Source: Bacillota bacterium
GTDB lineage: Bacteria; Bacillota; Ch66; Ch109
Assembly (NCBI GenBank): GCA_050952625.1
Contig: JBMNLH010000001.1
Span: 832,001 to 896,000 of the forward strand
DNA: 64,000 bases
Direction of reading: 5' to 3'
Shown: piece by piece, positions 14,980-17,810 of the stretch
Layout of the letters: every line of letters begins with the position of its first letter
Numbering within the stretch: the stretch's first letter is position 1
The notes under the pieces: generated by a model
The model's input: only the letters and a program-made list of their open reading frames with translations
Database searches by the model: none
What the model was told of the DNA's origin: nothing
Program-made: the position numbers and the translations under genes

Positions 14980-15464
14980 TGGCTAGAGTAGTTCAGGTAG
15001 GTATGGCAGATTATAAGGTAACGGTTAGTCCGAATACCTTAATGACTGCCGGGCTAGGTTCTTGCGTTGGGGTATGTTTATGGGATCCGGTAACGAGAAT
15101 TGGTGGATTAGCCCACATAATGCTGCCCTCAAGCGTTCAGGCGCGAAGAACTGATAGTAAAGGCAAATTTGCTGATACAGCCATTCTGGCGGTAATCCAG
15201 GAGATGAGTCGTTTGGGAGCTAACCCAACTCGTTTGGTAGCTAAAATCGCTGGCGGAGCCCAGATGTTTAATTTCGGTGGTACTACGGATATTATGCGAA
15301 TCGGCGATCGTAATGCACAGGCTGTTCAACAGGTATTGAAAAATGAAAAAATAAAGATCCTGTTTTCCGATACCGGCGGCAGTCATGGACGAACCATTTA
15401 TTTTATGACGGAAAATGGTAAACTCACTATTCGAACAATAGAGCATGGTGAGAGGGTTGTGTAA
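14979..15464 (+). CDS. cheD: Chemoreceptor glutamine deamidase CheD
   Basis: GLGSCVGVCL, GGLAHIMLP, KIAGGAQMF, DTGGSHGRT. Confidence 0.96.
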   Translation: MARVVQVGMADYKVTVSPNTLMTAGLGSCVGVCLWDPVTRIGGLAHIMLPSSVQARRTDSKGKFADTAILAVIQEMSRLGANPTRLVAKIAGGAQMFNFGGTTDIMRIGDRNAQAVQQVLKNEKIKILFSDTGGSHGRTIYFMTENGKLTIRTIEHGERVV

Positions 15465-15466
15465 TT

Positions 15467-16243
15467 ATGGCTGAACCTAAAATAAAACAACCCTGGCTTC
15501 GGTATAAACAGCAGGGGGATATTTCGGCAAGAGATAACCTGATTACCCAATATGTTTATTTGGTCAGGCAGGTAGCTGGTCGGTTAAGCATGGGACTTTC
15601 ATCCCAGGTTGAGCTGGATGATCTAATCGGGAACGGAGTTTTTGGATTATTGGATGCGATCGAAAAGTTCGATCCAACTAGAGGAGTAAAATTCGAAACT
15701 TACGCCGTTACCCGGATTAGGGGAGCAATATTAGACGGTCTGCGTGCTATGGATTGGGTCCCTCAATCAGTGCGCCAGAAAAGCAGAATGTTAGAGAAAA
15801 CATATCAAAAGCTGGAACAAGAATTAGCCAGGCCAGCGAGTGACCAGGAAGTTGCGCAAGCTTTAGGTCTAAACGATTTAGAATTTGATCGATTATTAGT
15901 GGAAGTGAGTCATACATCCTTATTCTACCTTGAGGATATGTGGCTCGGGGAGTCGAGCGACGATGATTCCCTCCGTATTATCGATACCCTGGAGGATCCA
16001 ACTATTGAAGAACCTACGGCCCGTTTAGAACATGAGGAGCTAAAAAATCTCCTGGCAGAAGCAATAGATAAACTGCCAGACCGAGAGAGACTAGTCATCT
16101 CACTATACTACTACGAAGCCCTAACCCTCAAAGAAATCGGAGCAGTCCTCGGATTATCCGAATCCCGCATATCTCAACTACATACCAAAGCCATCCTAAG
16201 ACTACGCGGCCGCCTAAGCCGACAAAAAAAACGGATATTCTAG
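15467..16243 (+). CDS. sigD: FliA/WhiG-family sigma factor (sigma-D)
   Basis: FETYAVTRIRGAILDGLR, DWVPQS, LTLKEIGAVLGLSESRISQLH; at the end of the fla/che operon. Confidence 0.95.
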   Translation: MAEPKIKQPWLRYKQQGDISARDNLITQYVYLVRQVAGRLSMGLSSQVELDDLIGNGVFGLLDAIEKFDPTRGVKFETYAVTRIRGAILDGLRAMDWVPQSVRQKSRMLEKTYQKLEQELARPASDQEVAQALGLNDLEFDRLLVEVSHTSLFYLEDMWLGESSDDDSLRIIDTLEDPTIEEPTARLEHEELKNLLAEAIDKLPDRERLVISLYYYEALTLKEIGAVLGLSESRISQLHTKAILRLRGRLSRQKKRIF

Positions 16244-16363
16244 GAGCACCGTATCTAAAAGTCAGGAAAGAACTGTACAAACAGAAGTAGAACTTTAGCA
16301 CCGCAGAAACTGTGCGAAAAGCAAGAGGTGCGACTATTAAAATAAAAGGAGCACCGTATCTAA
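16242..16363. repeat. 17-bp perfect direct repeat AGGAGCACCGTATCTAA (16242-16258 and 16347-16363) enclosing an 88-bp partly structured spacer
   Basis: Both copies read directly; spacer contains GCACC...GGTGC stem with internal hairpins. Confidence 0.9.
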
Positions 16364-16409
16364 CTATTTTTATTAAGGATAAAGTAACTGCCGGTAGGAG
16401 GTGGGCATA

Positions 16410-17810
16410 ATGAAGAAACCCTATATTGGCGTATCAATTGAACAAGACAGCATGGCAGCTTACTTACAGGTTGAGAACGATGATGAAGATAATTATAAGG
16501 GTGATATTCAGGAACTATTCGAAATGGCTTTAGAGCGTCTTCAAGAGAAAGGGGTAAAGTATGGGATTGATGAAGCGGCAGTGCGAGATGCGGTTTCTGT
16601 ACGACGTGGAGAAAAGATGCTAGTAGCGGTGGGCAAACCCGTTGAGGAAGGTAAAGATGCGAGTATTACTTTTCATTACTTATCCGATAAAGAAAAAGCA
16701 GGACGACCGCAGGAGCGAGAAGATGGAACTGTTAATTTTTGGGATTTAAACTTGATTAACAATGTTCGGGCCGGTGATATTTTGGCGACCAAAACACCAT
16801 CGGTTTCCGGAAGTCCAGGAATTACGGTTACTGGCCAGATTATAAAACCGAAGCCAGTTAAAAACGCGACTCTCCGTCGGGGCAAAAACACATCTTTGGA
16901 GAACAATGGTTTAAAGTTGATTGCTACCCGAGACGGACACGTGGTAACAACGGCCGATGGAGTAATTAGTGTTTTGCCTGTTTTAACCGTTAACGGAAAT
17001 GTGGATGTGGCTACTGGCAATATATCATTTATCGGTGATGTAGTAATCCAGGGTAGCGTAAAACCCGGTTTTGCGGTCCGGGCTGAGAAAAATATAGAAG
17101 TCATTGGCAATGTTGAAGGGGGTTCACTTTTAGCTGGTGAATCTATTACGGTTAAAGGAGGCATCATAGGGCAAGGAAAGCACCGTGTCGTGGCTGGTGG
17201 CAGCCTGAAGGCGCGATTTATCGAAAATGGTATGGTTCAGGCAAGAGGCGATATTTTAATTAATGACGCTATACTAAATAGTACAGTCATCGCTGGAGGA
17301 CGGATCCAAGTGGAGGGCCGGCGAGGAACAATTGTCGGGGGCGAGACGCGAGCCACCTTTGAAATAAAAGCGAAAAATATCGGGTCACCCTTAACGCCTT
17401 TGACTCAGCTTGAAGTTGGTGTTAAGCCTGAATGGAAGGAAGAATTAAAGAAGATACTGGCAGAATTAAAATCAAAAACCAAAAACTTGGAAAAAAGTCG
17501 ACAAGTATCCAATATGTTGGTTCAATTAAAAAAGAACAAAGGCGAGCTGCCGAAAGATAAGCGGGAAACCCTGGAACGCCTGCAGTTCACCGAACAGCAG
17601 TTAGAACAAGAGATTGCAGAAGGGCAGAAGCGTAAACGAAAGTTGGAAGAAAAACTGTCCATGCTCACAACCGGTAAGATTAAAGTTCAGGGAACAATCT
17701 ATCCTGGAGTAACCGTTGTTATTGGAAATATAACGATGAGTATCAATGATCCGCTCCAATATTGTCAATTAGTAATAGAAAATGACGAAATCAAAATCCG
17801 TCCTTATTGA
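16410..17810 (+). CDS. FapA (DUF342) family protein
   Basis: GVKYGIDE, GKPVEEGKDA, VDVATGNISFIGDV, beta-helix repeats, GTIYPGV; follows sigD; AGGAGG upstream of ATG 16410. Confidence 0.9.
   Translation: MKKPYIGVSIEQDSMAAYLQVENDDEDNYKGDIQELFEMALERLQEKGVKYGIDEAAVRDAVSVRRGEKMLVAVGKPVEEGKDASITFHYLSDKEKAGRPQEREDGTVNFWDLNLINNVRAGDILATKTPSVSGSPGITVTGQIIKPKPVKNATLRRGKNTSLENNGLKLIATRDGHVVTTADGVISVLPVLTVNGNVDVATGNISFIGDVVIQGSVKPGFAVRAEKNIEVIGNVEGGSLLAGESITVKGGIIGQGKHRVVAGGSLKARFIENGMVQARGDILINDAILNSTVIAGGRIQVEGRRGTIVGGETRATFEIKAKNIGSPLTPLTQLEVGVKPEWKEELKKILAELKSKTKNLEKSRQVSNMLVQLKKNKGELPKDKRETLERLQFTEQQLEQEIAEGQKRKRKLEEKLSMLTTGKIKVQGTIYPGVTVVIGNITMSINDPLQYCQLVIENDEIKIRPY

Follow-up and report, generated by a model that had tools for sequence, protein, structure and literature searches.

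Genus-specific recoding of gene 3' ends upstream of a tandem repeat, with sigD of a Bacillota bacterium as the strongest case

The sigD locus and its A/C-ending tract

The stretch of DNA analyzed here (64,000 nucleotides, referred to as the window) belongs to the 2.9-Mb genome of a Bacillota bacterium, termed G000, and contains sigD, a sigma factor gene located in a che/flagellar cluster. In sigD, the final 55 sense codons end almost exclusively in A or C, and the stop codon that follows them overlaps a tandem repeat with a unit of approximately 107 nt. We found this repeat inserted in sense orientation precisely at stop codons of genes unrelated to one another, with about 55 codons 5' of it driven to C/A-ending, G/T-poor forms in the stem lineage of the genus while the proteins stayed intact. 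The sigD tract is the strongest case of this genus-specific, repeat-linked, one-sided recoding. A preliminary description of the locus had suggested that a cis-acting site drives local mutagenesis there. The features of the locus are as follows; G001 denotes the other species of the same genus.

15467..16243, + strand: sigD/fliA-type sigma factor gene, 258 amino acids (open reading frame [ORF]; Pfam Sigma70_r2 at residues 25-97 and Sigma70_r4 at residues 199-247)
16076..16240, + strand: A/C-ending codon tract over sigma region 4, comprising the last 55 sense codons (204-258), 51/55 of which end in A or C
16241..16243, + strand: TAG stop codon of sigD, the AG of which forms the first two bases of the repeat
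16242..16346, + strand: one 105-nt unit of the genus-specific repeat of ~107 nt, purine-rich, with GGA/AGGAG motifs (nhmmer E = 1.6e-23)
16242..16258, + strand: first 17-mer, AGGAGCACCGTATCTAA, the 3' half-site of the unit-junction hairpin, here without its 5' partner
16327..16355, + strand: unit-junction hairpin GGTGC-GA-CT ... AG-GA-GCACC (pairing across 14 copies)
16347..16363, + strand: second, terminal 17-mer, which closes the array (degenerate in G001)
16237..16265, - strand: match to a sigma-70-like promoter, CTGACT-17-TAGAAT, directed towards the sigD tail (9/12 matches)
16410..17810, + strand: fapA (flagellar assembly protein A), the gene downstream of sigD (Pfam FapA_N and FapA)

The hand counts of the preliminary description were all exact: 51/55 codons in the tract (the exceptions being GAG, TCT, CAT, and CGG), 15/40 at the start of the gene, 10/18 immediately 5' of the tract, CTA at 7/10 Leu codons (the others being two CTC and one TTA), and TAC at 3/3 Tyr codons. 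Outside the tract as a whole, 98/203 codons ended in A or C. Counted backwards from the stop codon, successive bins of 10 codons contained 9, 9, 9, 10, 10, 7, 5, and 5 such codons. Given the amino acid sequence and the codon usage of the genome, 26.2 ± 3.7 A/C-ending codons would be expected in the tract, and the probability of 51 or more is 5.3e-13. Conditioned on amino acids, the sigD tail reached a z of 6.8, followed by 6.0 for the next gene and a continuum from 4.7 down. The bias ended at the stop codon, which overlaps the 17-mer as had been stated (TAG at 16241-16243, 17-mer at 16242-16258). The absence of bias in fapA also held, 24 of its first 54 codons being A/C-ending (z = -0.1).

An overlapping reading frame was rejected as the cause. 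There was no other-frame ORF of at least 60 amino acids over the tract; the frame that an A/C rule leaves open is ~72 codons long, is without a listed start, and reaches a stop inside the repeat unit. Reading of TAG as pyrrolysine was rejected as well: tRNA-Pyl was absent among the 54 tRNAs of the genome.

Standing of the tract in the genome and among relatives

We scored 648,922 segments of 55 codons from 2535 crude ORF-genes of G000, and sigD came out at the top. All segments with at least 45 A/C-ending codons fell in sigD, and the runner-up gene was pheS with 44. The signal was confined to the third codon position, since the A+C content over all positions (0.66) placed the tract merely in the top 0.18% of segments. 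Segments with z of at least 4 were enriched at 3' ends (9/35 genes). There was no general trend towards gene ends: third-position A+C content (AC3) was flat at 0.447-0.462 across the last 120 codons of 1422 genes.

Two of the 30 sigD orthologs drawn from 41 related genomes carried the tract, with 51/55 codons in G000 and 52/55 in G001; the remaining 28 had 15-33/55. Orthologs of pheS and of a FakA-like gene, both of which also precede the repeat, had 17-27 and 18-29 A/C-ending codons of 55 in four relatives that lack it, compared with 41/38 (pheS) and 41/39 (FakA-like) in G000/G001. The codon bias was thus not found in relatives without the repeat. G001 is represented by an independent, fragmented assembly with ~4% DNA divergence from G000, and an assembly artefact, including the chimeric assembly considered earlier, is excluded because this second species shares the tract. 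Several contigs from independent digester and bioreactor runs carried the same tract sequence, and a contig from an RNA library spanned 16104-16255, which attests presence only. The near-identical strains X10 and X12 showed no differences from the window inside the tract among the matches listed, which are assembled contigs. The organism is common in anaerobic digesters, with 14 of the 24 listed runs holding at least half of the sampled words. No closer relatives of sigD were found in genome or metagenome contig collections, the best match being 66%.

The protein sequence encoded by the tract was conserved. Residues conserved among outgroups were replaced at 2/56 positions in the sigD tail, compared with 39/168 in the rest of the protein, which bears out the earlier claim that the recoding is silent. 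Amino acid replacements in tails mostly followed from G/T -> A/C changes at codon positions 1 and 2 (F>L, Y>H, V>I, and S>T, versus K>R). The SigD protein is 2-3 residues shorter than in relatives. Because the protein tail is conserved and G001 and the independent contigs agree, the recoding is silent and native rather than a foreign 3' end.

The repeat and its seven loci

The 17-mer AGGAGCACCGTATCTAA over the stop codon of sigD forms the first portion of the ~107-nt tandem repeat unit. An nhmmer search placed the unit at seven loci of G000. Five of these carry it in sense orientation: one unit and a closing 17-mer follow sigD; five units and the 17-mer, 560 nt in all, separate pheS from pheT; 1.5 units follow a FakA-like/DAK2 gene; two units lie between rpsF and ssb; and a 36-nt stub follows a crotonase-like gene. 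The other two loci carry inverted copies, one unit upstream of the L20 leader/infC and a partial copy upstream of ispE.

A hairpin of the general form RGYRC-GA-CUA ... UAG-GA-GYRYC occurred at every unit junction. Over 14 copies, 93.5% of cells were paired, compared with 12-52% when the partner columns were slid, and three pairs showed changes on both sides. G.U pairs in the hairpins of the pheS array favor the + strand. The junction TAGGAG, with TAG serving as the stop codon, was common to sigD, pheS, and the FakA-like gene. At the seven loci, no target sequence was shared by the left junctions. The repeat was also considered as a candidate CsrA-sequestering RNA, which would display many GGA motifs in loops for binding by CsrA: each unit contained two ACAGGAAAG-type motifs and one AGGAG, the latter inside the hairpin stem region; G000 has two csrA genes.

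The copy number differed between G000 and G001, with 1.5 versus 2.5 units after the FakA-like gene and 2 versus 1 after rpsF. The repeat was restricted to the genus: blastn returned matches in 3/41 genomes, one of them a 27-nt noise match in genome G025, and a pattern search identified 2/401 genomes of the phylum. It had no match in plasmid or phage collections and belonged to no Rfam 15 family, with 0 matches at E <= 10 in positions 15400-16800 of the window. Over five other repeat loci, the sole Rfam match was the L20 leader and not the repeat itself. The inverted copy concerned, at G000:C1:530755-531136, adjoins this L20-leader RNA (RF00558, 60.3 bits) in the infC operon promoter region.

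Two ways in which the repeat might act on its surroundings were rejected. The minus-strand promoter match was found at sigD alone, where its -10 hexamer consists of the last sigD codons and the stop codon; it is missing at the pheS array and is therefore not a feature of the repeat. Pairing of the 17-mer with the upstream boundary of the tract was no better than chance for pheS and the FakA-like gene, for which 75/200 and 41/200 shuffled motifs were as good. For sigD, 6/200 shuffles matched the long-range pairing, but the site lies at -293 nt and not at the tract boundary.

Recoded tails in other genes

The association between the tract and the AGGAGCACCGTATCTAA motif, which holds in one orientation, was examined at the other loci as well. 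For the genes before the five sense copies, z of the last 55 codons was 6.8 (sigD), 5.3 (pheS), 4.3 (FakA-like), 1.2 (rpsF), and 1.1 (the gene before the stub). The three strong tails belong to the full sense copies whose first bases form the stop codon. When genes were ranked by their best 55-codon segment, sigD was 1st, pheS (44/55) 2nd, and the FakA-like gene (41/55) 13th of 2535. The plateau extended over ~50-60 codons in all three. At rpsF, the repeat begins 7 nt past the stop codon, and A/C-ending codons make up 27 of the last 40. No function is common to the affected genes, which encode a sigma factor, PheS, and a FakA-like protein.

The effect was one-sided. A mirror-image bias downstream of the repeat was rejected, as the 5' ends of the genes located there had z values of -0.9 to 0.6. 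On the element strand, the upstream flanks of the two inverted copies had A+C contents of 0.54 and 0.58 and were unbiased; one of these flanks is non-coding. The ispE gene, antisense to an inverted copy, had a z of -2.3 in its own sense, which is a weak hint. All sense copies are co-oriented with the leading strand, and both inverted copies are not, so the direction of transcription and the direction of replication are inseparable.

On contig C4, at ~180-200 kb, GC skew and gene orientation change sign, which suggests a replication origin; the terminus apparently lies near C1:1.32 Mb. The rpsF-ssb repeat locus is ~50 kb from this candidate origin.

A repeat of any kind at the stop codon was rejected as a general cause: 181 genes with other downstream repeats had a mean z of 0.19, compared with 0.00 in 1228 genes without (P = 0.05). 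Two additional genes had genus-specific tails, namely, a flagellar-rod gene (G000:C4:46547-47392, - strand; 42/55, G001 37, relatives 25-32) and an L25/Ctc gene (G000:C4:318692-319345, + strand; 41/55, G001 39, relatives 23-34).

The preliminary description had suggested looking for a trans factor near other copies of the motif. There was no HUH nuclease or reverse transcriptase (RT) gene beside any copy. The two matches to Y1_Tnp (C1:1584 kb, C5:74 kb) are located away from all repeat copies, and the RVT_1 matches, one a frameshifted group II intron RT (C1:515 kb) and the other a fragment (C1:1279 kb), are both distant from the copies. The group II intron-type RT (G000:C1:515008-516420, locus L234:1150-2560) is split over two frames and is pseudogene-like. 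Its ORF holds a high internal A/C segment (42/55, z = 4.5).

Direction of change and divergence between species

All tails have lost T and G and gained C, and A has risen in sigD and the FakA-like gene. The sigD pattern had previously been likened to deamination. We applied G>A plus T>C to the outgroup composition at four-fold sites, with the following outcome:

sigD: observed A14/C14, predicted 14.8/15.2
pheS: observed A2/C19, predicted 12.4/13.6
FakA-like gene: observed A5/C9, predicted 9.4/7.6

The deamination-type pattern therefore stood for sigD and did not extend to pheS, which has the Leu codon CTC where outgroups have CTG, CTA, or TTA. Because pheS moved to C and not to A, transitions alone, or simple deamination, cannot explain all tails.

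Divergence was measured as A/C<->G/T differences at third positions between G000 and G001 in the tails of sigD, pheS, the FakA-like gene, the flagellar-rod gene, and the L25 gene. The tails differed at 23/275 sites (8.4%) and the rest of the same genes at 112/1320 sites (8.5%). Three two-state models were compared with the 23 differences observed:

ongoing mutation-bias equilibrium: 40.7 expected, P = 0.0018
selection equilibrium: 17.0 expected, P = 0.09
neutral decay of a relic: 24.9 expected, best fit

As tail divergence equaled the background, a live hypermutator is disfavored. A site that drives mutagenesis at present, as had been proposed, does not agree with these numbers or with the unbiased flanks of the inverted copies. 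The sigD tail itself contained one A/C<->G/T difference, compared with ~4.7 at the 8.5% baseline, and two of its four differences between the species were A<->C. Third-position G/T bases private to one species numbered 6 in G000 and 17 in G001 within tails and 61 and 51, respectively, in the rest of the genes. Tails keep the A/C state better in G000 than in G001 (loci L001/L002, L191/L213, L204/L218, L244/L246, and L245/L250).

RNA properties of the tails

Folding of the tails was compared with synonymous recodings drawn from the codon usage of the genome. The sigD tail had a minimum free energy of -21.3 kcal/mol, compared with -39.9 ± 5.4 kcal/mol in the recodings, and 0/100 controls were as weakly folded. 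Its self-pairing was below that of 40/40 controls. The FakA-like and L25 tails were mildly less structured than their controls (2/100 and 2/40 as weak); the flagellar-rod tail was not, with 9/40 controls as weakly structured. With a C content of 0.32 and a G content of 0.15, the sigD tail had a C-G skew of +0.37, the 5th highest of 2535 gene tails. The corresponding skews were +0.14 for pheS (rank 137) and +0.12 for the FakA-like gene (rank 158). G000 has a rho gene, and no terminator-like site was found in positions 15900-16500. A displaced intrinsic terminator was rejected as the cause, because relatives, too, are without one near sigD.

Rut sites are described in PMC6061677 as unstructured, C-rich, and G-poor stretches of ~80-90 nt, more than 100 nt upstream of termination. 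The sigD tail is C-rich and G-poor over at least ~80 nt. An unstructured or Rho-loading transcript had been listed as an alternative in the preliminary description; this alternative fits sigD only, in fold and in skew. Rho termination is compatible with operon logic for sigD only.

Selection on the mRNA as the favored explanation

We hypothesized that the tails reflect selection, tied to the repeat, for an mRNA end that is single-stranded, poor in G/U, and rich in C/A. This is our best guess, with a probability of roughly 40%. Selection at the transcript level would favor a C/A-rich, G/U-depleted tail with little ability to base pair, placed just 5' of the stop codon and of the purine-rich, Shine-Dalgarno-like repeat RNA. 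Such a tail could present a single-stranded stretch to a factor binding to or loading on naked RNA. The best-fitting known factor would be Rho, for sigD only, where the tail is C-rich, G-poor, and unstructured. The tail is also longer than the rut length of 80-90 nt given in PMC6061677, with an intergenic region 3' of it in which no intrinsic terminator was found. A transition-biased supply of mutations would account for sigD ending as CTA/NNA/NNC, as G>A plus T>C predicts. In favor of selection are the link of the strong tails to full sense copies, the ordinary tails of orthologs without the repeat, the one-sidedness, the action on nucleotides rather than on decoding, and, for sigD, the weak folding, the C-G skew, the missing terminator-like site, and the presence of rho. 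The single A/C<->G/T difference in the sigD tail (versus ~4.7) and the selection-equilibrium model for five tails, which was not rejected (P = 0.09), agree with it as well.

Several results weigh against selection on the mRNA. The pheS tail was not less structured than its controls (34/100 and 17/40 as weak), and pairing between tail and repeat was not reduced in 5/5 genes (z of -0.7 to +0.2). At the pheS array, there was no promoter-like site in or after the 560 nt before pheT, and Rho entry there would deprive pheT, which is essential and co-transcribed, of its transcript. Past the repeat, the FakA-like gene is provided with a terminator-like hairpin and T run of its own. A naked zone at these two genes, where Rho termination would be harmful or unnecessary, is not explained. 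In three relatives, sigD is also without a nearby same-strand terminator, yet without an A/C tail. The effect was weak at rpsF (z = 1.2) and absent from the gene that precedes the 36-nt stub (z = 1.1), and the four weaker tails together had accumulated 22 differences, the neutral rate, compared with ~15 expected under selection. No single RNA property fits every tail. Moreover, a bias of 93% at 55 sites needs strong selection per site in a genome that elsewhere is without codon selection. The flagellar-rod and L25 tails, finally, are genus specific, yet each is followed by a different, unrelated repeat family, and z reached at least 3 in only 5/52 genes in which some repeat begins no more than 5 nt from the stop codon (median, -0.07). 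From these tails and the 5/52 it follows that either the property is common to several repeats or something else brings tails and repeats together.

Silent sites commonly pass for near-neutral; here, ~50 consecutive ones have been shifted in a single direction, in several unrelated genes beside the same small repeat. If selection is the correct explanation, a mobile repeat in a 3' untranslated region or between cistrons imposes a strong RNA demand on the upstream gene. This would represent a new host-repeat interaction, possibly with Rho or another single-stranded-RNA-binding factor in Bacillota, and would call for caution in codon-based inference.

Alternative explanations

A past, polar mutation pressure linked to the repeat, a modified form of the preliminary proposal, could also have produced the tails; we regard this chief rival as a real but doubtful possibility. 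Here, the minus strand of ~165 nt 5' of the repeat would have been resynthesized repeatedly in an error-prone manner in the genus stem lineage, with the coding strand as template, G.T and T.G mispairs, and some excess dG insertion. The trigger might have been stalling of transcription or of the lagging strand at the repeat, or mobility of the repeat. Purifying selection would have purged the non-silent changes, and the process would have largely ceased, leaving tails that now decay near-neutrally. The lack of a shared function among the affected genes, the one-sided and one-stranded effect, and the absence of any coherent selective benefit among our findings favor this explanation, as does the co-direction of every sense copy with the leading strand. 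In sigD, the four-fold sites agree with the transition prediction, the CTA:CTC ratio of 7:2 compares with ~7.9:2.1 from genome usage, and 9/10 Leu codons of the tail begin with C. The G/T -> A/C replacements at codon positions 1 and 2 point the same way, and the neutral-relic model fitted the divergence best (24.9 versus 23).

Against past mutation, the ongoing form of the bias is rejected (40.7 versus 23, P = 0.0018), so that the explanation must assume a lost trans factor; no RT, HUH nuclease, or similar gene adjoins a copy. A local bias of at least ~16-fold would have been needed over a long time. The move of pheS to C and not A, including CTC in place of outgroup CTG, CTA, or TTA, does not fit, and neither do the unbiased non-coding flank of the inverted copy, the weak effect on rpsF, and the lack of one on the stub gene. 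The unequal numbers of private G/T bases (6 versus 17) are not predicted by a pure relic. If mutation is nevertheless correct, the tails record a new cis-directed mutational process in bacteria.

In its general form, this idea casts a small non-coding repeat as a cis-acting, polar, strand-specific mutator, present or past: wherever the repeat lies in sense orientation at a stop codon, ~165 nt of the upstream gene would be recopied repeatedly with a G/T-to-A/C bias, with silent survivors only. We consider it unlikely. It would amount to targeted local mutagenesis in bacteria without a known counterpart.

Causality might also run in reverse, with A/C tails arising independently in the genus and the repeat inserting or surviving preferentially behind them. 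The rod (42/55; G001 37) and L25 (41; 39) tails, which precede unrelated repeats and are absent in relatives (23-34), speak for such an order of events, and so does the enrichment of segments with z of at least 4 at 3' ends (9/35 genes). It is hard to reconcile with the fact that the two most extreme tails of the genome both carry one family with just five sense copies behind genes, or with seven left junctions that lack a common target, and it leaves the origin of the tails unexplained. Reverse causality thus appears improbable.

The remaining explanations have little to recommend them. A presently active hypermutation site based on deamination or error-prone synthesis, as in the preliminary description, would agree with the co-location of the motif and the transition-like pattern of sigD, and is made very improbable by the tail divergence of 8.4% versus 8.5% (one difference in sigD versus ~9.6 expected; P = 0.0018 for five tails), by the lack of tract differences in the listed contigs of X10 and X12, and by a rate of amino acid change that is not elevated in tails.

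A foreign 3' end brought by an integrative element, or a chimeric assembly, could be read from the abutting repeat and the 2-3 missing residues of SigD; this was rejected, since the tail protein is near-identical to that of relatives (2/56 conserved positions changed), no genome-wide codon usage of such a kind is known as a donor, no leftover original tail lies downstream, the repeat has no match in plasmid or phage collections, three different genes show the same effect, and G001 and contigs from independent runs agree.

A translational cause (optimal or Watson-Crick-decoded codons, or a cluster of rare-codon pauses near the stop codon) is just as hard to credit. A- and C-ending codons do pair in Watson-Crick fashion with U34/G34 tRNAs, and CTA, ATA, AGA, and CGA are uncommon in G000. 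However, AC3 was 0.455 in 31 ribosomal-protein, elongation factor (EF), and neighboring ORFs (7117 codons), equal to the genome mean (0.453), and CTA made up 0.11 of Leu codons in this cluster and in the genome alike; A/C-ending codons are therefore not translationally preferred. The 54 tRNAs include C34 species for 10 amino acids (Ala, Arg, Gln, Gly, Leu, Lys, Pro, Ser, Thr, and Val). As C34 tRNAs are present for nearly all NNG codons, and these are avoided, the pressure acts on nucleotides and not on decoding. The tract also mixes common codons (ACC and GCC) with a rare one (CTA).

Comparison with known systems

None of the known systems accounts for all of the facts. REP/BIME, ERIC, BOX, and Correia elements are short, structured, non-coding intergenic repeats, often in tandem and just past stop codons. 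The G000 repeat resembles the REP/BIME type in being short, structured, transcribed-intergenic, and variable in copy number between close relatives. It differs in having just seven loci and a 107-nt purine-rich unit that is flanked by 17-mers and repeated directly rather than in alternation. REP/BIME systems with RAYT comprise many short palindromic copies, frequently alternating in orientation, that flank a Y1 (RAYT) transposase; no RAYT-like gene is associated with the G000 repeat. We know of no report of REP-type repeats recoding an upstream gene, and a literature search of limited depth surfaced no description of recoding beside repeats.

In the variable repeats of diversity-generating retroelements (DGRs), adenine-templated positions are altered and the protein is changed. 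The sigD tract is similar in that ~100-150 nt at a gene 3' end, with a hairpin cis site downstream, have undergone directional change on one strand. It is unlike a DGR variable repeat in its silent changes and its gain of adenines. No DGR template repeat was found, with no dedicated low-stringency search run for a second copy of the tract. The element e14, which integrates in icd, carries a replacement for the 3' end of the gene. Like e14/icd, the sigD tract comprises ~165 nt at a gene 3' end with many silent changes and abuts a mobile sequence. Unlike e14/icd, it is accompanied by no integrase, prophage, or displaced 3' end; the element is non-coding and 105-560 nt long, and three genes are shifted in the same compositional direction.

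The likeness to rut sites as described in PMC6061677 lies in a C-rich, G-poor, weakly structured RNA of at least ~80 nt located 5' of a terminator-less region. In contrast to rut sites, the sigD tract lies wholly within a translated ORF, uses only synonymous sites, and does so to saturation, with U depleted as strongly as G. It is situated upstream of the repeat hairpins, whereas PMC6061677 places the Escherichia coli rut signal downstream of REP/stem-loops. The same recoding also occurs inside an operon, before pheT, and before a gene with its own terminator.

Additional observations

The beginning of pheT, just past the 560-nt array, contains an apparent +1 frameshift ~70 nt into the gene (G000:C1:536585-536700; locus L197:2079-2200). 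An ATG with a Shine-Dalgarno sequence opens the frame MRVPLTWLKEYVDIKISPEEL..., and the remainder of PheT, LTMAGITVENID..., is read in the following frame. The shift may stem from faulty assembly or reflect a genuine break in an essential gene.

The genome of G000 is rich in repeats, with 7.5% of it in 14-mers present at least three times and 184 genes with a repeat within 150 nt downstream. One repeat family has the core GGGGACGGTTC, with ~100 matches at no more than one mismatch. Regions of contigs C2 and C3 with ~200 BLAST matches and spurious 'MFRFR' ORFs may represent CRISPR-like arrays.

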